A stretch of 63,104 nucleotides of DNA, the filler included, from Limisphaerales bacterium (lineage in GTDB: Bacteria > Verrucomicrobiota > Verrucomicrobiia > Limisphaerales > SIBE01): assembly GCA_044225505.1 (NCBI GenBank). It is 4 parts of 4 records of this genome, joined end to end, with 100 filler letters (N's around TTAATTAATTAA, not from the genome) between each part and the next. Parts side by side here need not be neighbours in the genome. Positions count along the whole stretch, not along the records: positions 1 to 15,758 come from JBGAIN010000184.1; 3 more parts are not named here. One strand, given 5' to 3'. Below are positions 1 through 49,878 of the stretch, one piece after another; positions within the stretch are counted from its first letter, which is position 1; every line of letters starts with the position of its first letter. The notes under the pieces were generated by a model that saw only the letters and a program-made list of their open reading frames with translations, had not been told where the DNA came from and searched no databases. A program made the translations under genes and the position numbers.

Positions 1-2
1 TT

Positions 3-827
3 AGAGTCTTTCCCGGCGGCAAAGGGGCAAATCAAGCCTACGCCTGCGGCAAGCTGGGCGCGGCGGTTTCAATGATCGGACGAGTGGGTAGCGATGGCCA
101 AGCGGAAGGCTTGCGTCGGAACCTGGCCGACGTAAATGTTAACGTGGATCATGTGCAGTCGGTTGCGGGGATCAGCACGGGTGTTGCAACGATCACGATT
201 GACCGTCACGGCCAGAACCAGATCATTATTGTCCCAGGCGCCAACGGGGCGTTTGACGTCACCCAACTCCAACGAAGCGCGCCGGTGATTGCGAAGGCTG
301 GAATCCTGCTGCTCCAGTTGGAGATCCCAGTCGAGACGGTTTTGGCGGCCGCCCAGGTTGCGCGCAAGTCCGGTGCGATTGTGATTCTGGATCCAGCTCC
401 GGCGCGCAAGTTGCCCGATGAACTCCTGGCTTGCGCAGACTACCTAACGCCCAACGAAACGGAATTGGCGGTTTTGGCTGGAGTTCCGCCCGCGGCATGG
501 AGTCCACGGGAAGCCTCGCTCATTGCCCGCAAACTCATGGACCGCGGTGCGCGCAAGATCATCGTCAAAATGGGTTCGCAAGGTGCCGTCCTGGTGACTC
601 GCCATGAGGAGCATTTCTGGCCGGCGAGACCGGTAAAGGCCGTCGATAGCACCGCGGCAGGCGACGCTTTCAATGGCGCTTTCGCAGCCGCGTTGGCCCG
701 GGAAGAATCGGAGATAGAGGCTGGGGCGTTCGCCACGGCTGCGGCAGCTCTATCTGTCACGCGTGCTGGGGCGCAGCCGAGTATGCCGTCTGCCGACGAG
801 GTGGCCGCATTCCTCCGGGCCGGTTGA
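3..827 (+). CDS. rbsK: Ribokinase (PfkB family), 5' end outside the window
   Basis: Frame is open from the window start (FPGGKGANQA); PfkB motifs PNETE and DSTAAGDAF. Confidence 0.9.
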   Translation, partial: RVFPGGKGANQAYACGKLGAAVSMIGRVGSDGQAEGLRRNLADVNVNVDHVQSVAGISTGVATITIDRHGQNQIIIVPGANGAFDVTQLQRSAPVIAKAGILLLQLEIPVETVLAAAQVARKSGAIVILDPAPARKLPDELLACADYLTPNETELAVLAGVPPAAWSPREASLIARKLMDRGARKIIVKMGSQGAVLVTRHEEHFWPARPVKAVDSTAAGDAFNGAFAAALAREESEIEAGAFATAAAALSVTRAGAQPSMPSADEVAAFLRAG

Positions 828-842
828 GTAATTGCGGTCGCT

Positions 843-1352
843 TTACGTGAGCAGCAGCGTGGCAACAAAAAGTGTGAGGTTAACGTAGACGGCGGCAAGT
901 AAATCATCAACGGTCACGCCCCACCCACCCGGCAACTGCTGGCTCTGTCGCACGGGCCACGGCTTGGCGATGTCAAAGACCCGGAACGCGATGAAGGTGC
1001 CGACGGTCCACCACACGGTTTCCCGGGCAATAAGCCAGTAAGGTGGGGGTAGATGCCCAAATTTCGCGATGAATCCGGCCAGAGTGCCTCCGAAGCAAAG
1101 GGGTATCGCCGCAATCTCGTCGAGCACGACCGATCCAGGGTCGGTGCGACCGAGGATCCTTTCCGCCTCGCCGCAAAACCAGACGGAAGCGGCTATGCCC
1201 AAGAGGCTTCCGAGGACGTAAGCCCAGAGCGCGCCGGTAGCTAGCAGAGCGGCCACCCAGACTAACCCCAACAAAGAGCCAAACGTTCCGGGGCTACCGG
1301 GGATCCGCCCGATGTAAAACCCCTGGGCAACCCACACGACGAGGGCGTTCAT
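843..1352 (-). CDS. pgpA: Phosphatidylglycerophosphatase A
   Basis: PGTFGSL, DPGSVVLDE, FRVFDIAKPWP and GGWGVTVDDLLA motifs; overlaps pgsA by 4 nt. Confidence 0.92.
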   Translation of the reverse strand: MNALVVWVAQGFYIGRIPGSPGTFGSLLGLVWVAALLATGALWAYVLGSLLGIAASVWFCGEAERILGRTDPGSVVLDEIAAIPLCFGGTLAGFIAKFGHLPPPYWLIARETVWWTVGTFIAFRVFDIAKPWPVRQSQQLPGGWGVTVDDLLAAVYVNLTLFVATLLLT

Positions 1353-2026
1353 GAGCCGTGTCCCAGGTCGTCCAGGTAGAGTAAGCGATTACGCCAAAGA
1401 TAAACGGCGCCGGACGTGAAGGTCAGAATCACGCTCAGCCACTTGGCGACTTCGGTAAACGCCGGCACCCACCAAGCGAAGACCGGTTGGGTCCAGCTTC
1501 CCCATTCCGGGAAGCTTACGAGCGTTAAGACAGAAACGATTGCGACAATTTGTGAAATGGTTTTGTGCTTCCCATAGCCTTCCGCGGCCAGCACCACATT
1601 TTTCGACGCCGCCAATAGTCGCAGGCCGGTGATCGCCAGTTCCCGCGCTACGATAATCACCACCATCCAGCCTGGAACCAGATTACGATCAACGAAGGCG
1701 ATAAATGCGGAGCAGGTCAGAATCTTGTCCGCCAAAGGGTCCATGAGAATCCCGAAATTGGTGATCAGCCCATCGCGGCGAGCAATCTTTCCGTCGAAAT
1801 AGTCCGTCAGACTCGCCGCGGAGAACAAGATCAGGGCGAGTGTATTGCCCAGATGAACCTGGGCGAAGAAGACCGTAAGAAATGCGAGTGTTAGCGCAAA
1901 GCGAGAGAGCGTCAGTTTGTTCGGAAGGTTCATGCCGCGGGCGGGACGAGCACGGGCGTCCGCCTTGGCGTCTAACCCAACGGGCGTGGGGCGGGTGGCA
2001 GAGTTATCGCTGGCGGGAGTGCTCAC
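1349..2026 (-). CDS. pgsA: CDP-diacylglycerol--glycerol-3-phosphate 3-phosphatidyltransferase
   Basis: NLPNKLTLSR; CDP-alcohol motif DYFDGKIARR...G...DPLADK. Confidence 0.93.
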   Translation of the reverse strand: MSTPASDNSATRPTPVGLDAKADARARPARGMNLPNKLTLSRFALTLAFLTVFFAQVHLGNTLALILFSAASLTDYFDGKIARRDGLITNFGILMDPLADKILTCSAFIAFVDRNLVPGWMVVIIVARELAITGLRLLAASKNVVLAAEGYGKHKTISQIVAIVSVLTLVSFPEWGSWTQPVFAWWVPAFTEVAKWLSVILTFTSGAVYLWRNRLLYLDDLGHGS

Positions 2027-3675
2027 ACCGGTTCAGCGATTAAATCATAGTCGGTATGGCCGACCACTTTAACGACGGCAAACTCGCCCGTCGGCAGCTT
2101 GCCGCGAATGAAAACTCGTCCATCAATGTCCGGCGCATCCGCTTCGCCCCGGGCCACCAGATACCGCCCACGAACGGGCAGGGGAGCGGGCGACTCGAAC
2201 CGGGCCAACCCATGTTCCCATGAGCTGACGTCCGCTTTGGAAAGTTCCTTGCGACTGGCTTCCTGCTCCACCAAGACGCGAATCTGGCGGCCGATGTAGC
2301 TTTGCCCGATGGCTCGCGCCACGCGTTGCTGTTCGGCCATCGCTTTGTTTCGTCGCTCTTGCTTCACGGTGTCGGAAATCTGGCCCATCATGCTGGCCGC
2401 TCGAGTTCCATCTTCATGCGAGTACGTAAACACGCCCATCCGTTCAAACCGGGACTCCCGAATAAACTGCAGCAGAGTGTCAAAGCAACCGTCTGTCTCC
2501 CCCGGAAAGCCCACAATGAATGTGGTGCGCAGGGCAATCCCAGGAATGCCTGTGCGAATCCGTGCAATCAAGTCCACAATGAATTCCTGCGACGTCTCGC
2601 GGCGCATACGTTCCAACATGTTGGGATGAATATGCTGGAGGGGCATGTCGACGTAGCGCGCGACCTTGGGACACTCGCGGATCGTTCGAATGAGCTCGTC
2701 CGTCCAATGCGCCGGGTGGGTGTAAAGCAAGCGTATCCAAAACTCGCCCGGTAAATCGTTTAAAGCCCTCAACAATGTGCAGAGCGTCGGTGTATCCTGC
2801 GGCAGATTACGCGCCGCGGTGCGAAAGCGCTCCGGGGATGCAATCGACCCTTGACGATTGGGCCTTAGATCCAGCCCGTAATAGGTCGAATCCTGGGATA
2901 TCAAATCGAGCTCTTTGACTCCTTCGGCCAGCAACTGCCGCGCTTCCGCAACAACGTCGTCGAGGGTCCGGCTCCGATGCGCGCCACGCATTCGCGGGAT
3001 CGTGCAGAAGCTGCACGGGTGATTGCATCCTTCCGCGATTTTCAGGTAGGCAAAGTGCCGCGGAGTCAGGCGAAACCGAGGCGTTGCATAATCCGGGATG
3101 TACTGCGGACGCACTGTCACATGGACGGCCGGCTCGGCCGACCTCGCTGCGGGAGAGGCGTCGCTGTGCGAATGATCGTGGGTTCCGTTCCCTTGACCGA
3201 CGCTGTTCGCTTCGCTGGTTTCGGCCAGACGTGCCACCACCTTGCGCGCTTGTGTTTTGCCGCGCGTTACGGTGCGGCGTTGGGCTCGATGCTCCACGGC
3301 TTCCCGGACGATTTGGGCTACTTGGGCGACCTGGTCGATCCCCATAAAGGCGTCGACTTCGGGAAGCAACTTGGGAAGCTCCTCACGAAACCGCTGCGGA
3401 AGGCAACCGGAGACTACCAATCCTTGGCCACGGTTGTGGGCCTCGCGCAGTTCGGCCGACTCCAAGATGGTGTCGACACTCTCCTCTTGCGCCGCGTCAA
3501 TGAACGAGCAGGTGTTGACAATCAGGACGTCGGCTGTCGCGGCATCATTGGTGATCTCCATGCCGTCCTTGGCCAGGGAGCCCAGCATGATCTCGGCATC
3601 GACCAGGTTCTTGGCGCAACCTAGAGAGATCATCCCGACTCGCAGAGATCGTGGTTTTGTGCGGGCAGTTTTCAC
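2023..3675 (-). CDS. rimO: Ribosomal protein S12 methylthiotransferase (start uncertain)
   Basis: SLGCAKNLVDAE, NTCSFI, radical SAM CNHPCSFC, C-terminal TRAM domain with APDIDG. Confidence 0.93.
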   Translation of the reverse strand: MKTARTKPRSLRVGMISLGCAKNLVDAEIMLGSLAKDGMEITNDAATADVLIVNTCSFIDAAQEESVDTILESAELREAHNRGQGLVVSGCLPQRFREELPKLLPEVDAFMGIDQVAQVAQIVREAVEHRAQRRTVTRGKTQARKVVARLAETSEANSVGQGNGTHDHSHSDASPAARSAEPAVHVTVRPQYIPDYATPRFRLTPRHFAYLKIAEGCNHPCSFCTIPRMRGAHRSRTLDDVVAEARQLLAEGVKELDLISQDSTYYGLDLRPNRQGSIASPERFRTAARNLPQDTPTLCTLLRALNDLPGEFWIRLLYTHPAHWTDELIRTIRECPKVARYVDMPLQHIHPNMLERMRRETSQEFIVDLIARIRTGIPGIALRTTFIVGFPGETDGCFDTLLQFIRESRFERMGVFTYSHEDGTRAASMMGQISDTVKQERRNKAMAEQQRVARAIGQSYIGRQIRVLVEQEASRKELSKADVSSWEHGLARFESPAPLPVRGRYLVARGEADAPDIDGRVFIRGKLPTGEFAVVKVVGHTDYDLIAEPV

Positions 3676-3744
3676 AAGACGCCAGAACCTACGGAAGCAC
3701 CGAGACCAACGCAAAGCAAATGTTGGCTCTGTCCGGAGTGGGCC

Positions 3745-4245
3745 CTAGCGCGCGGGCGCCGTCAAGGGCAGCACCTCTCCGACGTTGGCCGAGGAGGGTT
3801 GGTAAAGCCCTGGTCCTAAACCCGCCAGAGGGTCAGTGGCTCGATGCACTCGCCAGGCTCGGTAACTTACGACGGAAATGTAAAGGACGAGCGCCACGCC
3901 CGTGACCAGTAAGGTGATGCCCCATTTCACTTTGGACAGCTGGAGCATCAACAGATCCACGGGTGTCGGCGCGGGCTTCGCGAACTGAGTCGACTCTTGC
4001 AGGCGTGTTGATTGCCCAAGCTCCGCTTCTAAATCCGTCAGAATCCCGGCCGGCTCGAGCCGCAGGAGGATCGCATAGCTCCGAACGAATCCACGAACGT
4101 AGACGGGGGCCGCAAAGACGTCGTAATCGCCTTCTTCCAAAGCACGGACGTGATCCGACCGGAGCTTGGTTCGCTCTGCAACCTGCGCGATGGATAGCCC
4201 TTGCTTCTCGCGCGCGGCTTTCAACTGTTCACCAACGCTGGTCAT
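3745..4245 (-). CDS. RodZ-like HTH membrane protein (no large periplasmic domain)
   Basis: GEQLKAAREKQGLS...ALEEG...YVRGFVRSYA followed by one TM helix; typical rodZ-rimO-pgsA context. Confidence 0.8.
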   Translation of the reverse strand: MTSVGEQLKAAREKQGLSIAQVAERTKLRSDHVRALEEGDYDVFAAPVYVRGFVRSYAILLRLEPAGILTDLEAELGQSTRLQESTQFAKPAPTPVDLLMLQLSKVKWGITLLVTGVALVLYISVVSYRAWRVHRATDPLAGLGPGLYQPSSANVGEVLPLTAPAR

Positions 4246-4470
4246 TCCAGTTAAGTAAGCCTTCTCCACGGACGTTTGGCAATCTTAGAAGTGCATAGTG
4301 CCCGCTGGCGGGCATAAGTTAAAAGTGGGTGAGGTCAGCCGCAATATACTCCACGGGGCGCGTCTATGGCGAGTCCGACGAAGCCTAGCCGCAGCGCCCC
4401 CCCCCTCAGGCCGCACCTTCGGGAAGGCTTTCAAGCAGCGATCCATCCGGTTAGGCTCGGCGGGAGATTG

Positions 4471-5973
4471 TTACCCAGTCCCTTTTTTGATGGCCTTGAG
4501 CAGCTGCGCTTCGGGCTTCGTCCCGTAATAGCGATCGAGCGGATAACAACCGCTAATTAATCCGTTTCGCGGCCCGGTCGTACAATCGCTGAACGTCCGA
4601 CAAAGGAGCTTCGTTTGCAGTGTTCCTTTCTCGAGAGCGTCCGCAAAAATGCTTGGATACGAAAGGATCATCCGCCCGATCCCCACCACGTCGGTCCAGC
4701 GTTCCCGGAGGACGGCTTGCGCGACGTGGGGCAGGTATTCCTGGAGGTAACTATATGCCGTCCCGACCAGCAGCATGGGGACCGAGCTCGGTGACGCGGT
4801 TTTATCGAGTCGCTGACGCACTTGTCGCACGGCATCGATCTGACGAGCGACGCCAACCAGCGGATCTTCCGGGGGTTGATACCCGTCGCTAGGCGGGTAA
4901 ACCGCAGGCCGCTGAATATGCGGGTTGTAGTAAGGGGATCCGGCCGTCAGGTTCAAGACCTTGACTCCTAGATTCCGGCACAGTTCCGCAAACTGAAAGG
5001 TCTCCGCCAGGTCTGGCTCAATCGGGTTCGACGCATTGGCGCCAAAGGCAAACGGGTAAGGCAGCTCACGTGGATCTTCTGGAATGCCTCGCCCAGGTTT
5101 GCCAGGAATCGATTCGGCTGGGTCTGGCCTAAAGGGCAGGAAATCAAAGGCACTCAAGCGAACTCCGATTTCGATGGGGTTACCGTTGGCCCGAATGCGC
5201 GTCACGATTTCTCGGAGGATTCGAGTCCGGTTTTCGAACGGACCGCCATACGGCCCCGGCCGGTTTCGAGCACTCAGGAACTCGTGCAGCAGGTAGCCAT
5301 GGCAATGCTTGATATCCACAAAGTCCGCACCGACATCCCACGCGATTTTGGCAGCGCGAACATAATCATCGATCAAGACGTCAACCTCACTATCCGTCAG
5401 GACCTGACTGTCCGACGAGACGCCAAACCTGGGGTCGAGCAGCGGATGTCGATACGCCACGCGGGGTTCAAGGCGCTTTTTGTCACGTGGCTTGCAGAAC
5501 CGGCCCGAGTGTGTGAGCTGAAAACCGATCACCAGGTCGTCCGCCGAGCCGAACTGCTTCACATGCGCCTCCTCCAAGATTTGTCGCAGTTCAGCTAAAT
5601 CTCCCTTCGTTTCGGGAAGCAACGCCAGTTGGTTGGGATTCGCACGCGCTTCCAAGTTCACAGCCATGGCTTCGCCGCCGCAAATCAGTTTGGCGCCGCT
5701 CTCGCCGAAACGCTGCCAACGCCTTCGGACGTCGTCGGTGATCCCACCCGTGACGGTGCCATCCCAGCCTTCCATCGGATGAATGGCATACCGATTGCCA
5801 ATCTGTTTTCCGTTGATGCGGACCTGTGAGATCGGTTGTGCCACGGGCGACGCCATTCCCGTCGCAATCTGATCGTCGCAAGGGATGGAGATTTGAAGCT
5901 CGGCCATGCGCGCCCGGAGTTCAGAAACCGTTTTCAGGGCGGGAATGCGCACAATGTGGGTTGGTTCAGGCAT
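4471..5973 (-). CDS. NADH:flavin oxidoreductase (Old Yellow Enzyme family)
   Basis: PMEGWD, QLTHSGR, HCHGYLLHEFLS, YGGPFENRTR. Confidence 0.88.
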   Translation of the reverse strand: MPEPTHIVRIPALKTVSELRARMAELQISIPCDDQIATGMASPVAQPISQVRINGKQIGNRYAIHPMEGWDGTVTGGITDDVRRRWQRFGESGAKLICGGEAMAVNLEARANPNQLALLPETKGDLAELRQILEEAHVKQFGSADDLVIGFQLTHSGRFCKPRDKKRLEPRVAYRHPLLDPRFGVSSDSQVLTDSEVDVLIDDYVRAAKIAWDVGADFVDIKHCHGYLLHEFLSARNRPGPYGGPFENRTRILREIVTRIRANGNPIEIGVRLSAFDFLPFRPDPAESIPGKPGRGIPEDPRELPYPFAFGANASNPIEPDLAETFQFAELCRNLGVKVLNLTAGSPYYNPHIQRPAVYPPSDGYQPPEDPLVGVARQIDAVRQVRQRLDKTASPSSVPMLLVGTAYSYLQEYLPHVAQAVLRERWTDVVGIGRMILSYPSIFADALEKGTLQTKLLCRTFSDCTTGPRNGLISGCYPLDRYYGTKPEAQLLKAIKKGTG

Positions 5974-6081
5974 GGATGGCGGCGTGCTAAGGCGAGAGTG
6001 TGCCTTTCTTTTTTATTGGAAATCAAGCGATCTCCTCATTTCGCATCGACAGTTTCGTGCTGGCCCTACTATAACAACTTC

Positions 6082-6378
6082 ATGAGAACCAGGATCGTGA
6101 CGTTTTGTTGTGTCCTTGCCCTTTTACTCGCTCAAGTGCCGCAGACGAACGCCGTCGAAGACGGGAGCGCGGAGGCGATCGCTGCGGATGTGCTCGTCGT
6201 ACGCCCCGCGTGCTTTGCCATGACCATCATTGGCTCGGCCTTGTTTATTGTCGCGCTACCCGTGGCGGCGATTTCCAAGAGCACCCGGAAGACTGCCCAC
6301 GCGTTGGTCGTCCGGCCAGCACGGGCTACTTTTACGAGACCGGTAGGAGACATGAGCGATCTCGAGAGTGCCGATTGA
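6082..6378 (+). CDS. Small exported/membrane hypothetical protein
   Basis: ATG at 6082 gives a signal peptide followed by hydrophobic DVLVVRP...ALPVAA. Confidence 0.7.
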   Translation: MRTRIVTFCCVLALLLAQVPQTNAVEDGSAEAIAADVLVVRPACFAMTIIGSALFIVALPVAAISKSTRKTAHALVVRPARATFTRPVGDMSDLESAD

Positions 6379-6609
6379 TCCGGCCGAGCCGGTCTCATAC
6401 TCGCTGGCTGGTGACGATTTGTCTCCGAACGTCCGGTCTGACTCCGAGCGGACAATGGAACGTCAGTGCTGGCCCGTGCAGGCCAGCTTGTCGTCCACGA
6501 GGCGAGCGCCTTCCGGTCCGTGGGCCTTAAACAGAAACAGGGAGGGGAGAACGGCTTTCGCGGTCGCCGATCGCTTTACGGGGCTGTATCCGTGAGGTAA
6601 CGTCCCTTC

Positions 6610-7089
6610 ATGGAAGGATTGATCCTGCGGTTCATAGCCTTGGTTCCCCTTTGCGCGTTGCTCGGCGGTTGTGCAGCGGTCGCACCGCTGGCTTCCGGTT
6701 TGACGGGCACAGCCCCTTCCGCAGACGTCGAGGTCCACAGTCAAACGGTCCTGCGCCTTGATCAGGGCAATTTCGTCACCCTCCGGACCAATGCTGTCGG
6801 GCGTAGCAAGGGATTCAAATTGCTCGGATTTATCACGCTCTACCCAGCGACTCTCGATAAAGCCATGGACCGCTTGTACGCAGATGCCCAAGCTGAGCCA
6901 GGGCGCGCCCAAACGCTCGCCCACTTGATCGTCGAACGTTCCGGTATCTACGTCATTCTCTTCTCCATCCCGAAAGTGACCGCTCGGGCGGACCTCGTGG
7001 AGTTTCTGCCTCCGGGCGATGAAAACGAAGACTCACCCCACAGTCTCGGATTGCAGCGCGTGTCACGTCCTCCTCAACGCTTCCATTAA
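6610..7089 (+). CDS. Hypothetical lipoprotein (DUF6567-like, tentative)
   Basis: Signal peptide ending in lipobox-like LGGC; coherent 159-aa ORF. Confidence 0.65.
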   Translation: MEGLILRFIALVPLCALLGGCAAVAPLASGLTGTAPSADVEVHSQTVLRLDQGNFVTLRTNAVGRSKGFKLLGFITLYPATLDKAMDRLYADAQAEPGRAQTLAHLIVERSGIYVILFSIPKVTARADLVEFLPPGDENEDSPHSLGLQRVSRPPQRFH

Positions 7090-7236
7090 GTTGGAGCGGC
7101 ACTGTCGCTGATCGCGAGGCGCTCCTTCGTTCTCGGACGGCGCTGAGCAAAATCCAGCCTGTCGGCTCCCTCGTCCGGGAAATCCGACGCAGAATGGAAT
7201 TGCTCGCGGCGGTGGGAGTGCTAAATCGTTTCCATC

Positions 7237-8502
7237 ATGAATCACAGAATCCAATGGCCGGCACTCTGCTTGTGGGCTTTCACCACACTAGCGGTTGCTC
7301 AAGAGAAGTCCTTTCAATTGAAGGACGGTGACCGCGTGGTGTTTTATGGGGATAGCATCACAGACCAGCGCCTTTACACGACGTTCGCTGAAACTTACGT
7401 CGTCACTCGGTTCCCGAAGCTCGACGTGAGTTTTGTGCACTCAGGTTGGGGAGGTGACCGAGTCAGCGGCGGCGGCGGCGGGGCCATTGGTGTTCGTCTG
7501 GAGCGAGATGTCTTCGCCTACCAGCCCACCGTCATGACGGTGATGCTCGGAATGAATGACGGTTCCTACCGAGCGTTTGATCAGGAGATATTTGATAAGT
7601 ACTCCAAAGGTTACGAGCACATCGTAGATGCCGTCAAAGCGGCCCGCCCAAATCTCAAGCTCACGTTAATCCAGCCGTCTCCGTTCGATGACGTGACGCA
7701 ACCCCCGCGGTTTGAAGGAGGGTACAATCAGGTTCTGGTCCGTTATGGCGAATTTGTGAAAGAGTTGGCCAAGAGCCAGGGCGCTGGGGTGGCCGATCTG
7801 AATGGACCGGTCGTGGCGGCTCTCGAAAAAGCCAAAGCAACGGATGCCGAACTTGCCAAGAAAATCATTCCCGATCGCGTCCATCCAGGACCGGCTGGCC
7901 ACTTGTTGATGGCGGCGGAATTGCTCAAGGCTTGGAACGCACCGAAGGTCGTTGCGGCGGTCGAAATCGACGCGGCCGACGGCAAGGTGGTTCGCTCCGA
8001 ATCAACCCGCGTCTCCGCTTTGAAGGCTTCGGAGAGCGTGACCTGGACGCAGCTCGATACCGCTCTTCCTTGGCCGATTGAGACGAACGACACGGTCATG
8101 GCACTGGCCGTTTCTTCCTCGGACGTCATGGCTGCTCTTAACCAAGAGCCCTTGAAGGTCACCGGCCTCAAGGCCGCCAAATACCAGTTGAGCATTGACG
8201 GCGCCGCCGTGGGCGAGTTTACCAAAGAGCAATTGGCTGAGGGAATCAATCTGGCCTCAATCTCCACCCCAATGCTCAAGCAGGCCGCCGACGTCCATCG
8301 TCTTACTTTGCAGCACAATAACTTGCACGCTGCTCGCTGGCGCCAGGTTCAAGTCCCCCTCGCCAGTTACACTTCCGAAAAGGTCAAATCCGCCGTCAAA
8401 GACTTAATGGCCGCGTTGGATGACGAAGAAAGCGCTGTGATCAAGCGTCAACGGGCGGCAGCACAACCCGTTGAACACCGGTTCGATCTCACCCCTCTCT
8501 GA
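7237..8502 (+). CDS. Secreted SGNH/GDSL hydrolase
   Basis: Signal peptide; GDSIT, GMND and DRVHP blocks. Confidence 0.88.
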   Translation: MNHRIQWPALCLWAFTTLAVAQEKSFQLKDGDRVVFYGDSITDQRLYTTFAETYVVTRFPKLDVSFVHSGWGGDRVSGGGGGAIGVRLERDVFAYQPTVMTVMLGMNDGSYRAFDQEIFDKYSKGYEHIVDAVKAARPNLKLTLIQPSPFDDVTQPPRFEGGYNQVLVRYGEFVKELAKSQGAGVADLNGPVVAALEKAKATDAELAKKIIPDRVHPGPAGHLLMAAELLKAWNAPKVVAAVEIDAADGKVVRSESTRVSALKASESVTWTQLDTALPWPIETNDTVMALAVSSSDVMAALNQEPLKVTGLKAAKYQLSIDGAAVGEFTKEQLAEGINLASISTPMLKQAADVHRLTLQHNNLHAARWRQVQVPLASYTSEKVKSAVKDLMAALDDEESAVIKRQRAAAQPVEHRFDLTPL

Positions 8503-8830
8503 TCGAAGATCGGTCTCCCTGGGTCCCTCTCCGCAGAGCGGACCCGGGACTTAGAAATCGACGATGGCCCCCGGGTTTGACCTGGACGATGGTAACGCTG
8601 GTGCCCTTGGGTCCGCGCTTGCTTTTGAGGTCACCTCCGGGCTAATGAGGCACGTGCGGACCCAGGATCCCGGCGCACCCGTCGCTTTGAATGCGTGAAT
8701 TGCCTCGATTTTCGGGTGGATCATTGGAAATCAACGAATTAGGTGGGATTCACGCGTCCACCTCGCCGCAACTTCTGACGAACCTTTGTCGCTCCGGATA
8801 CGCTGTAAAGCCATCCTTCTACCGCTGCTG

Positions 8831-8869
8831 ACCCACAGGTCACCCACTCCAAGTGGGTGACCTGTGGGT
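8831..8869. repeat. Perfect 18-bp inverted repeat with 3-nt loop
   Basis: ACCCACAGGTCACCCACT-cca-AGTGGGTGACCTGTGGGT; imperfectly extendable to about 8812-8884. Confidence 0.85.
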
Positions 8870-8909
8870 TACCAGCGAAGGATGACCGAAACGTGGGCGA
8901 GTCAGGAAC

Positions 8910-9095
8910 GGTTGTTCCGCATTTTTCGACGATCGGGCGAGGCGGGAAATGTGGCGGCAAACGGCTGATAAAGAGTGATTTGTGCGCTGTCAGAGGCAAA
9001 ATCGCCCCCACCTGCCGTAGCCAGGGCCGACATGCCGGAGGCATGACCGAGAACAGAGGGAACCGCTTCTGTTCCATCGAAAACAGCGAAAAACC
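8910..9095. mobile_element. Degenerate short relative of the MITE at 14443-14801
   Basis: Exact 18-mer GACATGCCGGAGGCATGA (9029-9046 = 14525-14542); right end GAGGGAACCGCTTCTGTTCCATCGAAAACAG resembles GAGGGAACAGCTTCTATCCCACTGAAAACAG; imperfect inverted ends. Confidence 0.55.
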
Positions 9096-9172
9096 CTCGA
9101 CTCGTTCCGGAAGTTTCGCAATTGGTACGTTTCTGGTTGACCTGAAGCCTAAAAGGGTCTAGGAGTTCACGC

Positions 9173-9247
9173 GTGAATTGCAGCCTACTAGGCCGACTGT
9201 CTCTGCTTCTGGCTCTGCCTCTGCGCAGACCGGCAGTCGGGCTTTAG
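9173..9247 (+). CDS. Leucine attenuator leader peptide, 24 aa (MNCSLLGRLSLLLALPLRRPAVGL)
   Basis: GTG start 7 nt after AGGAG; 9 Leu codons including tandem CTA CTA; lies just upstream of a terminator and leuA. Confidence 0.85.
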   Translation: MNCSLLGRLSLLLALPLRRPAVGL

Positions 9248-9266
9248 TGCGATTTACTAAACTTTC

Positions 9267-9305
9267 AACCCCACTGCCGAATCTGCGGCAGTGGGGTTTT
9301 TCTTT
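9267..9305 (+). terminator. Attenuator terminator of the leuA leader
   Basis: AACCCCACTGCCG-aatctg-CGGCAGTGGGGTT plus T-tract; CGGCAGT (9231-9237) can pair with ACTGCCG in the 5' arm as antiterminator. Confidence 0.88.
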
Positions 9306-9367
9306 CGCGAGCGGACGCTTGCGGCCACACTGCGGCAGGAATGGCGAACGAGATAAAGAGTAAGCGT

Positions 9368-10945
9368 ATGAAAAACAATCGGATCATCATCTTTGACACC
9401 ACCCTCCGAGATGGTGAGCAGTGCCCGGGAGCGTCGATGAACTTGCGTGAGAAACTTGAGGTCGCGCGCCAGCTCGCCCGGCTCAAAGTGGACGTGATCG
9501 AGGCGGGATTCCCGATCAGCAGCGAAGGGGACTTTGCGGCGGTCGAGACGATTGCCCGGGAAATCAAAGGCCCTGTGATTGCTGGGTTGGCGCGATGCGT
9601 GCCGAAGGATATTGAGGCCGCGGGCGCCGCGGTAAAGCCGGCCGGGAAACGCGGGCGCATTCATGTGTTCCTCGCCACGTCGAAGATCCATCGGGAGTTT
9701 AAGCTTGGAAAAGCGCAGCACGAAATCGTTCGCTTAGCGGCCGAAGGGGTGAGACAGGCGCGATCTTTGGTTGAGGACGTGGAGTTCTCGCCGGAGGATG
9801 GGTCACGGACGGAACCGGATTTCTTGGTGGAAGTCTGCCGGGCGGCCATTGCCGCCGGGGCGCGCACGTTGAATATTCCAGATACCGTAGGCTGGGCCAT
9901 TCCCGAACAGTATGCGGCGTTGATTGGTCGTTTGGTCGAAGAGCTCCCTGAGGTCCGGGCAGGCAAGGCAGTGATTAGCGTGCATTGTCACGATGACCTT
10001 GGGTTGGCCGTGGCCAACTCGCTCGCGGCAATCCGGGCAGGAGCCCGCCAGGTGGAGTGCACCGTGAACGGGATTGGGGAACGGGCTGGGAATGCCTCGC
10101 TCGAAGAGATCGTGATGGCGCTCAAAGTGCGCCAAGATCATTTCCAAGGCTTGGACTGCGGGGTGAATACCAAGGAAATCGTCAAAGCCTCACGCCTCGT
10201 CTCGCGCATGAGCGGCTTGGTCGTGCAGCGCAGCAAAGCGATTGTGGGCGAAAACGCCTTTGCCCACTCCAGCGGCATCCACCAGGACGGCATTTTGAAG
10301 AAGCGCGAGACTTACGAGATCATGGATCCGGAGCTCGTGGGCTGGGGCAGGACGGAATTGCCGTTGACGAAACATAGCGGGCGGGCGGCGGTGGCGGCGC
10401 GTTTGAAACATCTCGGGTTCCAAATGACCGAGGGGGACGTTAGCGCGATCTTTGCCCGTTTCAAAGAGATTGGAGACAAGAAAAAGTTCGTCTACGACGA
10501 CGATCTCACCGCTTTGGTGGAAGGGCATATTACCGAAGTGCCCGAGACCTGGACTCTCGAATACATCAGCGTGACCAGCGGAAACAAGTTGGTCCCGACC
10601 GCGACCGTGCGATTGAAACGGCAAGGCAGTGCTGACGAAGAAGCGCACGAAGGCTCGCAGGACGCCAGTATCGGAGATGGGCCTGTCGACGCTGCGCTCA
10701 AAGCGATCGATCGTTTGACCAAGACGCGCGGCCGATTATTGGACTACTCGCTCCGGGCTGTTTCCCAAGGCAAGGATGCGCTCGGAGAGGTCACGGTGAA
10801 GGTCGATTTCGGCGATAAACAGTTGGTGACGGGGAAAGGGGCAAGCACGGACGTGATCGAGGCGAGCGCGCGGGCTTACTTGAACGCTGTCAATCGATTC
10901 ATGTGCAGCGGCGCGGAAAAGTCCGGCAAGAGCGGACAGCCCTAG
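9368..10945 (+). CDS. leuA: 2-isopropylmalate synthase
   Basis: DTTLRDGEQ, HCHDDLG, GIGERAGN, HSSGIHQDG and C-terminal regulatory domain (GDGPVDA). Confidence 0.95.
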   Translation: MKNNRIIIFDTTLRDGEQCPGASMNLREKLEVARQLARLKVDVIEAGFPISSEGDFAAVETIAREIKGPVIAGLARCVPKDIEAAGAAVKPAGKRGRIHVFLATSKIHREFKLGKAQHEIVRLAAEGVRQARSLVEDVEFSPEDGSRTEPDFLVEVCRAAIAAGARTLNIPDTVGWAIPEQYAALIGRLVEELPEVRAGKAVISVHCHDDLGLAVANSLAAIRAGARQVECTVNGIGERAGNASLEEIVMALKVRQDHFQGLDCGVNTKEIVKASRLVSRMSGLVVQRSKAIVGENAFAHSSGIHQDGILKKRETYEIMDPELVGWGRTELPLTKHSGRAAVAARLKHLGFQMTEGDVSAIFARFKEIGDKKKFVYDDDLTALVEGHITEVPETWTLEYISVTSGNKLVPTATVRLKRQGSADEEAHEGSQDASIGDGPVDAALKAIDRLTKTRGRLLDYSLRAVSQGKDALGEVTVKVDFGDKQLVTGKGASTDVIEASARAYLNAVNRFMCSGAEKSGKSGQP

Positions 10946-10978
10946 GGAGCTTGTCGGGGAGCGTTCCTCTGCTAGTCT

Positions 10979-12184
10979 GTGCGAGTGAGTTTTGTCACTG
11001 AGTTTAATCGGTTGCCTTTGCGCGACCTGGTGGAGCGTTCAAAAAACGCCACTGTGGCCGCCGCCAGTGCAGCGTTGACCAAGCCGAAGCTGACGCTCTC
11101 GGACCTGGCCGATCTGCTCTCTCCGGCAGCGGGAGGTCTGCTCGAAGCCATGGGACGGCGTTCGCAGGCGCTCACCCAACAACGCTTTGGGCGAGTGGTG
11201 CGCTTTTTCGCCCCGCTTTACTTGTCGAACGAGTGCATCAATAACTGCCGGTATTGCGGGTTCTCACGTGATAACCCGATCCTGCGGGTGACATTGTCCC
11301 TGCCTGAAGTGCTGAGAGAAGCCGCCGCGCTCAAGGCGCAAGGGTTTCGCAACATTCTTCTGGTGGCTGGCGAGCACCCGAAGTTTGTGTCGCAGTCTTA
11401 CCTGGCCGAGTGTGTCGGGGCGTTGCACGCCGAGTTTCCCAGCATCTCGCTGGAAGTGGGCCCCATGGAAACAGAGGAGTATCGCGGGATCTGCGCCGCT
11501 GGGGCGGAAGGGTTGGTTGTCTACCAAGAAACCTACGATCGCGAGGTTTACCTGGAAATGCACACGGCCGGTCCAAAGCGAAGTTTCGACTGGCGCCTGG
11601 AAACGCCCGAACGCGCCTATGCCGCTGGCTTTCGCCGTTTGGGGATTGGAGCGCTCTACGGGCTGAGCGATTGGCGTTGGGAAGCGCTCAGCGTGTCGGC
11701 TCATGCGGACTACCTGCTCCGAACTTGTTGGCGTTCTCAGGTGACGATCTCTTTGCCACGGCTCCGACCAGCTGCCGGAGAATTTGAACCGCTGACCCAT
11801 ATGACCGATCGGGACCTCGTCCAGCTCGTCTGTGCGATGCGGATGATGTTTCCCGATGTCGGGCTGGTTCTCTCCACTCGGGAGGCGCCGCGGCTGCGCG
11901 ACGGCCTTATTCCACTCGGAATCACTTTGATCAGCGCGGGTAGCCATACCGAGCCGGGAGGCTATACCGGGGCGGGAAAAGAGAATACTCACCTGACTGA
12001 AAAAGGACGGATCGTCGCGAGGGCAGGGGCGTCCGAGTGGGAAACGCCCGAGAATGGCACGACCAACGCCACTGGGCAGTTCCAGATCTCCGATGCGCGT
12101 TCCGCGAGTGAAGTGGCGGACGTTGTTCGGCGCTTAGGCTACGAACCCGTGTGGAAAGATTGGGACGCGGCGCTGACCGCTTAG
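10979..12184 (+). CDS. thiH: 2-iminoacetate synthase (tyrosine lyase, radical SAM)
   Basis: FAPLYLSNECINNCRYCGF, YQETY, LSTRE, C-terminal VWKDWD; adjacent to thiS. Confidence 0.92.
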   Translation: MRVSFVTEFNRLPLRDLVERSKNATVAAASAALTKPKLTLSDLADLLSPAAGGLLEAMGRRSQALTQQRFGRVVRFFAPLYLSNECINNCRYCGFSRDNPILRVTLSLPEVLREAAALKAQGFRNILLVAGEHPKFVSQSYLAECVGALHAEFPSISLEVGPMETEEYRGICAAGAEGLVVYQETYDREVYLEMHTAGPKRSFDWRLETPERAYAAGFRRLGIGALYGLSDWRWEALSVSAHADYLLRTCWRSQVTISLPRLRPAAGEFEPLTHMTDRDLVQLVCAMRMMFPDVGLVLSTREAPRLRDGLIPLGITLISAGSHTEPGGYTGAGKENTHLTEKGRIVARAGASEWETPENGTTNATGQFQISDARSASEVADVVRRLGYEPVWKDWDAALTA

Positions 12185-12195
12185 AGGGCTTATTC

Positions 12196-12361
12196 ATGAG
12201 TCCCGATGTCGTGACTGCCAATGGACAGCCCATCCCGCTGTCGCTGCCCTGCACGATCGAGGAGTTCCTCGTGAGCCAGAACCTGCTCCCTCGGAGTGTC
12301 GTCGTAGAGCACAATGGCGAGGCCGTGGCGCCAGATCGTGCGGATTGTGGCGGGCGGTTGA
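12196..12361 (+). pseudogene. thiS: ThiS sulfur carrier with internal deletion and frameshift
   Basis: N-terminal NG...VVVEHNGEAVAP in one frame; canonical C-terminus IVRIVAGG-stop (12335-12361) in the +1 frame. Confidence 0.8.
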
Positions 12362-12405
12362 TTCGTGCTTGAGAGGCGGCAGCGGAGATCGATAATGGCG
12401 TCCGT

Positions 12406-13740
12406 ATGAAGAAGCTGATGCGTCGGGCGCTCTGGTTTTCTGTCGGCCTCTGTTGGACCTGCTTGGTTTGGTTCCCTGCCTTTGGGCAAACCAATACCAA
12501 CACGGTCACTGTCACCGCGGAGGTGCAGTCGACCAACGGCGTCCGGTCGGTGAGCGCGGTGGTGCGTAACCTGGAGCAACAAGTCTACTTCACATTTGGA
12601 TTGAAGCGCATTCCGGTGTTGCAGCGAACTTTGTTTGGCGTCCCTCTCTACCAATATGCCGCTTCATTAATCTACGTTTTCCTGGCCTTTTACTTCTCGA
12701 AGTTCCTCGATTATCTCGTTGGCACGCAGCTGAAACGTTGGGCGTCCCGGACCAAAACCCGCCTGGATGATCTCGTCATCGGCCTGATCCATGGTCCGAT
12801 CAAAATCATCACGTTCGTCATCCTGTTGCACATCGGGCTGCAAGTGTTTCCCTGGCCAGCTTGGATTGCGCATTGGATTTCGAAGGGCCTGCTCGTGATC
12901 GTCGCTTGCTCGGTGACTTATATGCTCCTGAAGTGCGCCGATATTGTTGTGGAATACTGGGGCAGCCGGGCGCGAGCGCGAGAGGATCGAATTTTCAATG
13001 AGCAACTTTTCCCGGTGATCCGAAAGAGTCTGAAAGCATTTGTGATCGTGGTGGCAGCACTCGTCACCACCCAGAACCTGGGATTGGATATTACCGCCAT
13101 GCTCGCTTCGCTATCGATCGGCGGGTTGGCTTTGGGCTTGGCCGCACAGGATACCGTGGCGAATCTCTTTGGCGCGGTCGCCGTTTTTGTCGATAAACCA
13201 TTCCGCGTGGGGGACCGGATCAAGTTGGACAGCATCGACGGCACCGTCGAGTCGATCGGCTTGCGCAGCACTCGAGTGCGCAGTTTGGATGGGTATCTGG
13301 TCACCGTTCCCAACAAAACGATGGGCAATGCGACCATTACCAACGTCACACGCCGGCCCACCATCAAGACCGAGCTCAATATCGGCATCACCTATGACAT
13401 GCCAGCGGAGAAGGTCCAGCGCGCGCTCGATATTCTGACGGATACGTTTCGTAAACATCCGATGACGGCGGACTTGGTCGTTGGGTTTAATCGTTTTGCC
13501 GATTCGGCGCTGAACATTAACGTCGTCCATTGGTGGCGGGGGACGAACGATCACAAGGCTTATGTTCAAGGGATGCAGGAGATGAATCTCGCCATCAAGA
13601 AGCAGTTCGACGCTGAAGGTATTGAGTTCGCCTTCCCGACCCAGACACTCTACGTCAAACGTGATGGAGATCCGCTCTCCGCACTTGCGCCCGGGGTGGA
13701 AAACCCGCCGACTGGGCGGCCTCCTGCGGCGCGCGGTTAG
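12406..13740 (+). CDS. Small-conductance mechanosensitive channel (MscS family)
   Basis: GGLALGLAAQDTVANLFG, DKPFRVGDRI, GTVESIGLRST, IEFAFPTQT. Confidence 0.92.
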   Translation: MKKLMRRALWFSVGLCWTCLVWFPAFGQTNTNTVTVTAEVQSTNGVRSVSAVVRNLEQQVYFTFGLKRIPVLQRTLFGVPLYQYAASLIYVFLAFYFSKFLDYLVGTQLKRWASRTKTRLDDLVIGLIHGPIKIITFVILLHIGLQVFPWPAWIAHWISKGLLVIVACSVTYMLLKCADIVVEYWGSRARAREDRIFNEQLFPVIRKSLKAFVIVVAALVTTQNLGLDITAMLASLSIGGLALGLAAQDTVANLFGAVAVFVDKPFRVGDRIKLDSIDGTVESIGLRSTRVRSLDGYLVTVPNKTMGNATITNVTRRPTIKTELNIGITYDMPAEKVQRALDILTDTFRKHPMTADLVVGFNRFADSALNINVVHWWRGTNDHKAYVQGMQEMNLAIKKQFDAEGIEFAFPTQTLYVKRDGDPLSALAPGVENPPTGRPPAARG

Positions 13741-13822
13741 CCAGGGCGATGTTTGTGGCAATCCCAGTCGCATGGCGTCGGACGGAGTCGGTTTTGGGCC
13801 TGCCCGTGGTGTGATTGGCCTG

Positions 13823-13920
13823 AAAAGCTGTGGAGGGCCACAGCACTCCAAAACCTTGCGGAGCACAGTAGCTGAGTGATTGCGCGGCAGCGTCGCGCAG
13901 TGCGCCAGCCTCTCTGGCGC
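13823..13920. repeat. Pair of REP-like short palindromes
   Basis: GCTGTGG-aggg-CCACAGC followed by ACTCC, and AGTGCGCCAG...CTGGCGC, in opposite orientation. Confidence 0.5.
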
Positions 13921-14442
13921 GGCGTCCCACGTCGAATTGTCGCACACGCCGTCCACAATTGTGGACGCAATCCCAAGTCACACCGCCACAACGAGATCGG
14001 AAACCCCACAAATCGGTAACTGGATCATTGCGGATCGTAGTCTTGCTCGTAATCTAATCGTAATCCTCCCGCACCTTGGTCTGCTGAGCATTTCCCCACC
14101 CCGCCGCAGTGCGAACCATTGATCCATCACATCCAGCCACAGCCTGCGATCACCGCTGGCTGGCCTCAGTTTGGGTTCCCGCTGAACGGCAAGGAACATG
14201 TGGGGATGGCGCCACACGAATCCAGGAGCCGTTCATATGCAGGGATCCAATAAGGAGAGAGATGAGCTTTCTCGAAAAAGACGGCTTAGCGCTTCGATTC
14301 CGATATCCCACCAGGATTTGCGTGATTTGTTTGATCCACCGGACCGGCCGGAGACGCGCCGCCATGCGACCACGCGCTGCAAGAGCATAGCGTTTGAGCC
14401 AATGAATATAAGCCGTTTTAGTATGGATGGAGAGGTGAGGGC

Positions 14443-14801
14443 GGTTCTTTGCTCTTTTCCGTGAAGTTGGATCCCTGATAAGGCAACGGTTAAGTCTCTC
14501 GCCTGCGTGTCCTAGCCAAAGACGGACATGCCGGAGGCATGAATGAAAATAGCTCGGGCGCTTTAGCGCCGAGACCCAGCGACCCATGACGATTAGCCCC
14601 GGACGGGGCGATCGATCCTCCGAAATCACGTTGCTTCTAGGATTGGCAGAGGTTCAGCCGTCCCGTCGGGACTTTGACTCTGCGCGCGGATTCCCGGCAC
14701 TGGAAGTGCCGGGCTAATGTCATTCCGTCCCTGCCGGGACGCCAAACGCCTGTTTCAGAACGAGGGAACAGCTTCTATCCCACTGAAAACAGTCAGGAAC
14801 C
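14443..14801. mobile_element. Non-autonomous MITE, 359 bp
   Basis: 21-bp imperfect TIRs (GGTTCTTTGCTCTTTTCCGTG vs GGTTCCTGACTGTTTTCAGTG, 16/21); degenerate 8-bp TSD GTGAGGGC/GTGGCGAC; excision restores the host frame. Confidence 0.72.
14527..14741. repeat. Inverted doublet of ~88-bp three-hairpin REP-like units
   Basis: Forward unit 14527-14615, inverted unit 14654-14741; third copy at 47233-47321. Confidence 0.7.
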
Positions 14802-14967
14802 GTGGCGACGAGCACAAAGGCTTCGGACGGAATCAATTGCGGTGGTGAGTGGCATAGCCGATTGTCCCGCGCCTGCGAACAAAGCCGAATGACGTAGGGC
14901 AACGGTCGGTAAGGGCAGGGACCTGCCTTGACGCGAGAACTGATGCAATTGGCTAATTGGAAATGGC

Positions 14968-15009
14968 TTGCCGATTAAGTCGGAGTGATCAATATACTAA
15001 CCGTTCGGT
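14968..15009 (+). promoter_or_regulatory. Candidate attI site (core GTTCGGT at 15003-15009)
   Basis: Exact reverse complement of the attC inverse core ACCGAAC (15500-15506); 148 bp from the divergent integrase start; no attC hairpin upstream. Confidence 0.62.
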
Positions 15010-15047
15010 TCGTATCGTTCGTATATTGATGGCTCGGTCGTCGTGCG

Positions 15048-15494
15048 ATGCAACAGCGTCTTGTCACTCGGACAATGATTATTGGAGCCCTGTTGCTCGG
15101 CGCTCTCATAATGGTCGGCTTTTGTCCGGGCAGCCGCAGGGGGATCAACGTCGAGGTTGAGTACAGAGGCGAGACTCATTTGCCAGATGGAACTATTTGG
15201 GCAGATTTTCGGCTCAAAAATCGGGAGGGGCGGAAATTGTTTTTTCAGATTGGGCGGCCGGAGGCTACAGCGATGACGAGCATGGAAGCCAAACCGCCTA
15301 TGTTTGGACGGTCAGAGTGTATCGTGGATTCGGACAGCTCCATTTTTTTCAGAGTGAGGTCTCCTTCGCAACCGGGGTCCTGGAGGCTGCCCGTGAAAGT
15401 GCGGAGAGAGATTCCGGCTCTAGAGAAGGTTCTCGGGCCTAGAGTGCAGGGTTTTCGCGCCGAGCTGGTGTATAGCAGTGAGGTCATCAAATAA
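15048..15494 (+). CDS. Integron cassette 1: hypothetical membrane-anchored protein
   Basis: 148-aa ORF filling the core-site-to-attC interval; N-terminal hydrophobic anchor; stop 5 nt before attC. Confidence 0.75.
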   Translation: MQQRLVTRTMIIGALLLGALIMVGFCPGSRRGINVEVEYRGETHLPDGTIWADFRLKNREGRKLFFQIGRPEATAMTSMEAKPPMFGRSECIVDSDSSIFFRVRSPSQPGSWRLPVKVRREIPALEKVLGPRVQGFRAELVYSSEVIK

Positions 15495-15499
15495 CAGCG

Positions 15500-15588
15500 A
15501 CCGAACGAGCCGCTGCAGTGGACGGCGGGATGGCGTTGGATTGCAACTGGATGCTCTTGGCCCGCCACCACTGAGCTTTGCGTTACAC
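15500..15588 (+). mobile_element. attC recombination site, 89 bp
   Basis: R'' ACCGAAC; L'' GCT[G]CAGTGG pairs with L' CCACTGAGC leaving one extrahelical base; inner stem GGCGGG/CCCGCC; R' GTTACAC. Confidence 0.85.
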
Positions 15589-15593
15589 CTGAA

Positions 15594-15758
15594 ATGAGAT
15601 CCGGCGATTTCAGCGTAGCACGAGATGACGATTACTATCGGAAAGCATTCGCTGAAATCCAGCGCCGGCAATTCGAACAAGTGACATTCTCCACCCGTCC
15701 CGGGCTCCTATCCAAGGAACCCGTCAATGGGCACCGAATGTGGCAGGATTATCACGGT
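15594..15758 (+). CDS. Integron cassette 2 ORF, truncated by contig end
   Basis: ATG 5 nt after the attC R' site; frame open to the gap. Confidence 0.6.
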
Positions 15759-15858
15759 NNNNNNNNNNNNNNNNNNNNNNNNNNNNNNNNNNNNNNNNNN
15801 NNTTAATTAATTAANNNNNNNNNNNNNNNNNNNNNNNNNNNNNNNNNNNNNNNNNNNN
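15759..15858. other. Artificial contig linker
   Basis: N-run with TTAATTAATTAA (stops in all six frames). Confidence 0.98.
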
Positions 15859-31659: not shown

Positions 31660-31759
31660 NNNNNNNNNNNNNNNNNNNNNNNNNNNNNNNNNNNNNNNNN
31701 NNNTTAATTAATTAANNNNNNNNNNNNNNNNNNNNNNNNNNNNNNNNNNNNNNNNNNNN
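31660..31759. other. Artificial contig linker
   Basis: N-run with TTAATTAATTAA. Confidence 0.98.
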
Positions 31760-47387: not shown

Positions 47388-47487
47388 NNNNNNNNNNNNN
47401 NNNNNNNNNNNNNNNNNNNNNNNNNNNNNNNTTAATTAATTAANNNNNNNNNNNNNNNNNNNNNNNNNNNNNNNNNNNNNNNNNNNN
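47388..47487. other. Artificial contig linker
   Basis: N-run with TTAATTAATTAA. Confidence 0.98.
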
Positions 47488-49803: not shown

Positions 49804-49878
49804 TGGAGGCGAGGGTCGGAATCGAACCGACGCATAAGGCTTTTGCAGAGCCCTGCCTTACCACTTGGCTACCCCGCC
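49804..49878 (-). tRNA. tRNA-Cys (GCA)
   Basis: GGCGGGGTAGCCAAGTGGTAAGGCAGGGCTCTGCAAAAGCCTTATGCGTCGGTTCGATTCCGACCCTCGCCTCCA; cloverleaf, U discriminator, encoded CCA. Confidence 0.97.

Follow-up and report, generated by a model that had tools for sequence, protein, structure and literature searches.

Cassette arrays that are bounded by attC sites but have no working integrase adjacent to them have been described as CALINs or SALINs, for which mobilization in trans has been proposed (Cury et al. 2016, PMC4889954; Loot et al., bioRxiv 10.1101/2022.09.11.507474). According to these papers, a recognizable intI pseudogene is absent in 95% of CALINs, and the origin of these arrays is left open. attI is described as unknown for most integrons, which is why the available tools do not search for it (PMC4889954; IntegronFinder 2 preprint), and two attC sites constitute the default CALIN rule (IntegronFinder 2 preprint). 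Loot et al. also report that attC inserts into genomes efficiently and attI does not, and that excision is also possible away from the point of insertion. The locus described here, a short array at a contig end of a Limisphaerales bacterium (assembly GCA_044225505.1), resembles these arrays, but both an attI and a 36-codon remnant of intI are identifiable in it, so that its origin is the loss of intI and not insertion at an attG site; the remnant would fail the filter given in the same papers (>50% profile cover).

We consider it probable that the locus is a satellite integron platform, that is, an attI and a cassette array whose own integrase is dead and which is serviced by an integrase made elsewhere, the likely order of events being death of the integrase, duplication of the platform, and capture of cassettes in trans. 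Rescue of a truncated integrase in trans by another IntI is familiar from class 2 integrons, which have a single stop codon in the integrase gene and are carried in Tn7. The truncated integrase is common to that class, in which the cassette promoters are located within attI2 (PMC8876359), whereas the present locus has lost nine-tenths of intI and shows no carrier transposon. In the chromosomal integrons of Xanthomonas (bioRxiv 10.1101/2025.06.18.660453), deletions or frameshifts have likewise destroyed intI and left attI and the array in place; as described there, however, a single platform is fixed beside ilvD and the arrays stabilize after inactivation, in contrast to the multiple copies with differing content found here. 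The CALIN of Shewanella prophage M16-3 (Qi et al. 2023, PMC9892861) is similar in that an integrase-less array headed by a second attI shares its replicon with a complete integron, but that account concerns one extra prophage attI, whereas at least eight attI with a joined cassette occur genome-wide here, with a readable order of events. In the open-access literature, we found no primary paper on multi-copy or solo attI or on attI of Verrucomicrobiota.

The integrase remnant and its lesions

The stretch of DNA analyzed as a whole (the window; 63,104 nucleotides) joins the unrelated contigs C293, C295, C296, and C297 through runs of N at 15759-15858, 31660-31759, and 47388-47487, with a 12-base linker, and nothing across these runs represents biological adjacency. 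The integron locus is the end of C293 (window 1-15758), the run of N after 15758 being a joint between separate contigs; the genome comprises 9.0 Mb in 342 contigs, with an assembly contamination of 4.7%. Across the window, the sole Rfam match at the gathering score is a tRNA gene at 49807-49878 (minus strand). The left edge of the platform is formed by a REP-like dispersed repeat (13819..13920, no strand assigned; ~45 BLAST matches in the genome), which hides the original left junction. An empty site of the platform was sought in a same-genus genome and not found: mscS is followed there by an rlmN-like gene, whose counterpart in the present genome sits elsewhere.

The initial annotation had read a divergent open reading frame from 14855 as the N-terminus of IntI, once an insertion was removed. 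The peptide read through the break (with X at that point) indeed scores 29.4 bits over residues 1-35 against a clade profile made from the 119 best relatives of the intact integrase P0001 (contig C60), as compared with a maximum of 5.0 bits in 1000 shuffles, and its best single relative, P0018, is identical at 21 of 34 residues. The frame corresponds to the initial ~36 codons of an IntI of Verrucomicrobiota type, interrupted by a MITE and ended by a dispersed repeat; these codons are all that is left beside the array in place of an intact intI, and genome searches with PF13495 and TIGR02249 gave no integrase match on C293. The first piece (codons 1-18; 14802..14855, minus strand), which was delimited by the IntI profile alignment and contains the right target duplication, is kept in the platform copies on C132 (39/44 identical), C308 (44/46), and C252 (41/45). 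The second piece (approximately codons 19-36; 14381..14434, minus strand) reaches 12.5 bits alone against the clade profile and is weak in a genome-wide scan (10.1 bits).

Between the two pieces lies a 359-bp element (14443..14801, no strand) having the properties of a MITE, namely terminal inverted repeats (~22-27 bp), a target duplication, the absence of an open reading frame, and multiple copies; it contains two REP-like hairpins, and its matches to Acido-Lenti-1 are below the gathering score. The left copy of the 8-bp target-site duplication (14435..14442, no strand) is eroded and was recognized by comparing flanks with the other platform copies: one identical 8-mer is present in the left flank on C221 and the right flanks on C308 and C252, and the two copies in the window differ from it by one and two bases. 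Full copies of the element occur on C184, C244, C253, and C223, with a perfect 8-bp duplication on C253, and no parent transposase was found beside matching ends. A lone end of the same family is present at window ~9070-9095, upstream of a leuA-like gene. MITE-mobilized integrons are platforms flanked by paired MITEs; unlike these, the present locus, up to the contig end, has a single MITE, which is inside intI.

The 3′ nine-tenths of intI has been replaced by the remnant of a dispersed repeat (13915..14366, plus strand), which the platform copies on C132, C216, and C308 have in common. A six-frame scan of 13915-14366 detected no IntI similarity or C-terminal remnant, the profile alignment ending by residue 35-46. 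The repeat belongs to a family of ~600-700 bp with some 25-36 copies in the genome (36 seed matches), four of which adjoin transposase-like motifs, presumably fragments of RAYT-type transposases.

Cassettes, attC, and attI

The 89-bp attC proposed initially, with its four boxes and an extrahelical base, was confirmed at 15500..15588 (plus strand, recombining as the bottom strand). R″ (15500-15506) is separated by a 5-nt spacer from L″ (15512-15519, with the extra base at 15515), and L′ (15570-15576) by another 5-nt spacer from R′ (15582-15588). In the covariance-model check that had been called for, performed with our own model built from 20 other attC of the genome and excluding the window site, the same interval scores 53.5 bits (E 3e-12) on the bottom strand and 12.6 bits on the top strand, the only other match in the 63 kb scoring 13.3 bits. 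The structure of the model covaries (86 cells changed on both sides versus a shuffle mean of 34), and in the genome it matches 60 of 150 scored candidates, the 20 training sites included. The minimum-energy fold of the bottom strand has the canonical attC shape, and the boxes, extrahelical bases, and bottom-strand bias are those of an attC in a complete integron. The home-made pattern scanner, from whose 68 matches the training sites were picked by eye, was rejected as evidence because it does not discriminate (59 matches in the reversed control), and folding energy alone is a weak discriminator (z -1.7, range -1.4 to -2.3).

Cassette 1 (15033..15582, plus strand), delimited by the attI crossover and the attC crossover, contains a single open reading frame as annotated, but its size is 550 bp and not ~580 bp. 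The gene (15048..15494, plus strand) encodes 148 amino acids with a hydrophobic N-terminus and has two relatives; its product has no Pfam or NCBIfam match, and the best Atlas match is an unnamed cluster (0.91, recognition just under the threshold), which serves as a lead only. The second frame, rightly placed 5 nt after R′, starts at 15594 in cassette 2 (15583..15758, plus strand), where the contig end cuts it to 55 of ~109 residues; it belongs to a family of 10 relatives of 109-112 residues with two CxxC-type pairs and no Pfam match. The view that the array runs past the contig end also holds, in that C298 opens with a match to the C-terminus of the 109-residue relatives, followed by an attC whose R″ complements the R′ of the window. 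Judging from these matches, the array probably continues on C298, although C298 may follow the other copy if cassette 2 is present twice. With regard to the CALIN class proposed initially, no integrase is detected nearby, but C293 on its own has one attC and would not be called a CALIN under the two-attC default rule of IntegronFinder; three more attC are on C298 if this contig is the continuation. Functionally, the locus would be equivalent to a CALIN that has an attI of its own and is served in trans.

Elsewhere in the genome, cassettes of one type, ~180-350 bp long and containing short tandem repeats but lacking an intact open reading frame, recur on C132, C298, C60, C252, C311, C162, and C273; this type sits first at three different attI (C162, C273, and C311), and its start presumably resembles genes of four-helix-bundle proteins. 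Two-gene cassettes at C216:1870-2520 and C311:25040-25570 may, judging by eye, be bacterial toxin-antitoxin pairs.

The spacer between the intI start and attI (14856..14990, no strand), where a promoter region is expected, is conserved in the paralogs. attI itself (14991..15038, plus strand) was delimited by alignment with paralogs and intact integrons and is of the compact Verrucomicrobiota type, with an internal expansion of ~10 bp. The heptamer GTTCGGT at 15003, previously taken as the cassette boundary, exists but is located inside attI, in a stretch that differs between paralogs; the crossover is 29 bp to the right, at 15032|15033, since alignment with the attI of intact integrons places it at G15032, and homology between paralogs ends at 15032-15037. 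In the copy on C132, the heptamer aligned to this crossover is the exact complement of R″ of that copy's own first cassette (7/7). As in a complete integron, the attI divergent from intI has a G|TT-type crossover; being an attI of the clade type next to what is left of intI, the site is not an attG or secondary-site insertion. The deviation of the core sites from the consensus, singled out in the initial annotation, is unexceptional in this group, GTTCGGC being the commonest post-crossover heptamer (9 of the 44 attI sites described below).

When the array was compared in assembled contigs of four sequencing runs from four studies (X1, X2, X4, and X10), position 15033 was C in X1, X2, and X4, as in the window, and T in X10, where it gives a perfect complement of R″; the core site is GCTCGGT in the window and GTTCGGT in X10, and the crossover triplet is GCT and GTT, respectively. 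Among the paralogs, attI is ~89-93% conserved and its flanks 87-96%, so that there is no sign of selection on the site. No match to a consensus promoter was obtained in 14780-15100; the compact attI pattern includes a -10-like hexamer by design, and TT is present at -35 spacing in 15 of 22 sites. In this IntI clade, attI can be as short as ~35 bp and abut the intI start codon (L084, L092, L094, L098, and L100; C60:70256-70300 in genome G000), with a -10-like hexamer on each strand, one toward the cassettes and the other a few bases before the intI ATG; the latter suggests a leaderless intI message.

Strain variation and copies of the platform

The geometry of intI, attI, and cassette, and the death and erosion of the integrase, were correctly recognized at the outset, but the accompanying view of a frozen array is contradicted by three observations: cassette 2 of run X10, the intact IntI on C60, and the differing post-crossover sequences of the paralogs. 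In X10, the spacer, attI, and cassette 1 show 9 differences in 690 bp, and the sequence then departs from the window at 15586, just past the attC crossover, into a different cassette 2 (one contig at depth 4, the flanking mscS being uncovered in this run). In X1 and X2, a separate contig begins at 15582 at ~2x the depth of cassette 1, which would follow from the presence of cassette 2 in two contexts. Position 2 of the array varies between populations, whereas position 1 is probably locked in the window strain. A single chromosomal integron, inert since the loss of its integrase and with copy differences that predate the loss or represent ordinary deletion, could draw on the broken crossover triplet of the window genome, X1, X2, and X4, on the absence of a consensus promoter and of extra conservation in attI, and on the Xanthomonas strains reported usually to keep identical arrays when they share an intI lesion (bioRxiv 10.1101/2025.06.18.660453). 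We regard this reading as improbable, because the point at which copies sharing the truncation diverge is exactly the crossover, X10 has another cassette 2 joined at the attC crossover, and the genome holds an intact IntI.

The search for an intact integrase in the genome, suggested in the initial annotation, returned a single one, P0001 on C60, which scores 268 bits against the TIGR02249 cut-off of 265, well under the 320-460 bits of most full-length relatives. Six further contigs (C132, C216, C308, C252, C221, and C146) carry copies or remnants of the dead platform. The left repeat junction region of C293 is shared at 82-89% by C132, C216, and C308, the truncation being by the same repeat in all four, and the MITE occupies the same base in C293, C308, C252, and C221. 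Platform-borne MITE copies are 90-94% alike and 83-89% similar to the free copies, which fits, at the level of sequence similarity, one insertion inherited through duplication. Because the MITE site is deleted in C132 and C216, their split can be dated by the truncation only. The sequence after the crossover differs among C293, C132, C308, and C146; that on C308 is not demonstrably a cassette, as the contig ends 220 bp after the crossover, and the first cassette of C146 also follows an attC on C273. Because C293 and C132 have the truncation in common, the integrase was already dead when they parted, and their different first cassettes point to an enzyme acting in trans. Cassettes are joined to attI-type sites at G|TT on at least eight contigs of the genome (C60, C132, C146, C162, C273, C293, C311, and C330), a count that takes in other platform families, and an intact intI is present only on C60.

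On C60 (64379-71855 in G000; L007 and L017), two platforms stand in tandem, a dead, internally deleted intI with attI and array being followed directly by the intact intI with attI and a second array, and all the cassettes have the same orientation. At C252:19900-19920, a cassette-type sequence is joined inside the platform spacer, not at attI, at a G|T site corresponding to window 14911, likely through secondary-site recombination. Searches outside the genome gave no close copy of the platform in 109 IntI loci and no exact match of the window-family attI in GTDB; a whole-platform DNA search of 60 relatives matched mainly the REP part of the MITE.

The contigs might come from several related organisms binned into a single MAG, with one decayed integron per organism, as the 342-contig assembly with its contamination would allow and as might be suggested by C132 and C216, which agree at 96%, share a flank, and may be alleles of different strains. 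Such an artefact of binning is highly improbable, however: the flanking genes differ between the copies, the GC and tetranucleotide profiles of C293, C132, C308, C252, and C221 are within the range of the genome (4th-68th percentile), the C308-type left junction and the window locus occur together in run X2, which comes from a different study, and the motif is matched two or three times in each of four other genomes.

The evidence is best accommodated by a succession of four steps leading to the satellite platform. First, as the lesions show, an ancestral integron of a Verrucomicrobiota IntI clade lost the 3′ nine-tenths of intI to the repeat and took up the MITE in codon 18. The dead platform was then copied to several loci, as the common lesions and different flanks show. 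In the third step, the copies took different cassettes at the exact G|TT crossover visible in their junctions, the enzyme being presumably an IntI in trans, most likely the intact one of C60 or a predecessor. Finally, cassette 1 was probably fixed in position in this strain when T became C in the crossover triplet, the attC sites farther along the array presumably staying exchangeable.

As for the copying in the second step, IntI may have excised the platform together with its first cassette in a single circle, which then integrated at a different attC or elsewhere in the genome; platforms on C132, C216, and C60 sit behind an attC inside arrays and are thus excisable with their first cassette. 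Neither the window nor C308 shows a clean junction or an attC at the left edge, which counts against this route. IntI is the leading candidate, at somewhat under an even chance, movement mediated by the repeat is a serious second possibility, and other routes have a minor share. A fuller version of the repeat-mediated route would make the platform a non-autonomous transposable unit, moved by the left dispersed repeat or the MITE and only filled by IntI, and it departs from the satellite reading solely in the origin of the copies. Its left part does belong to the dispersed-repeat family, with four copies by transposase-like motifs, and C146 combines a near-identical attI with a more distant copy of the left repeat; yet no common right end or target duplication surrounds the platform, the MITE is single and internal instead of flanking, and no transposase with matching ends was found, which makes the transposable unit rather unlikely.

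The compact attI motif in Verrucomicrobiota

A pattern for the compact attI ending at GTT, which by construction favors well-preserved sites, finds 44 sites in GTDB, 30 of them in records named as Verrucomicrobiota. At 22 of the 44, an attC follows downstream on the right strand, and in 21 of these 22 the four bases that the pattern leaves free after GTT extend the match to R″ of the first attC to 7/7 (permutation mean 3.2, maximum 11 in 100,000). An intI match above the reversed control occurs within 1.2 kb of 9 of the 44 sites (2 full-length and 7 truncated), with <300 bp of upstream sequence at four of the 44; for the 22 sites with cassettes, intI is full in 2, truncated in 6, and not detectable within 1.2 kb in 14. 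A stricter pattern is present in 8 of 401 genomes of the order (none in the reversed control). The intact integrons of the clade often have, by eye, a compact attI near the intI start, and a looser expression recovers 7 of 33 intact-clade loci, indicating that attI is more varied than the motif and that the motif undercounts.

A search for an IntI-length match in five other genomes with solo attI gave none in two (G061 and G063, each with 21 attC), so that the helper enzyme is not always present today. In G061, the genome of L162, the attI and the 21 attC, in several clusters, are on a single-chromosome record. The solo attI L161, L162, L188, and L190 adjoin, by eye, small genes of helix-turn-helix or phage-like character, a hint that these sites may lie in prophages or integrative elements.

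What the window locus newly provides is a dated intermediate and a validated compact attI motif. We tentatively suggest, as a possibility short of our favored reading of the locus itself, that the integrase-less attI platforms of Verrucomicrobiota may be a propagating class of satellite integrons and not just products of decay. A site of ~35 bp, docking site and promoter in one, would spread through the genome as the cargo of IntI excision circles and create expression-ready capture points served by one integrase, and the window locus would capture an intermediate state on the way from an intact integron to a bare solo attI. The order of the lesions at this locus is readable, and the compact motif provides a direct test: the CALINs and SALINs of Verrucomicrobiota that are headed by a true attI, and hence lost their integrase, can be counted against those at random genomic sites. 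If dead platforms keep capturing genes, such arrays would be not relics but functioning components of a distributed integron.
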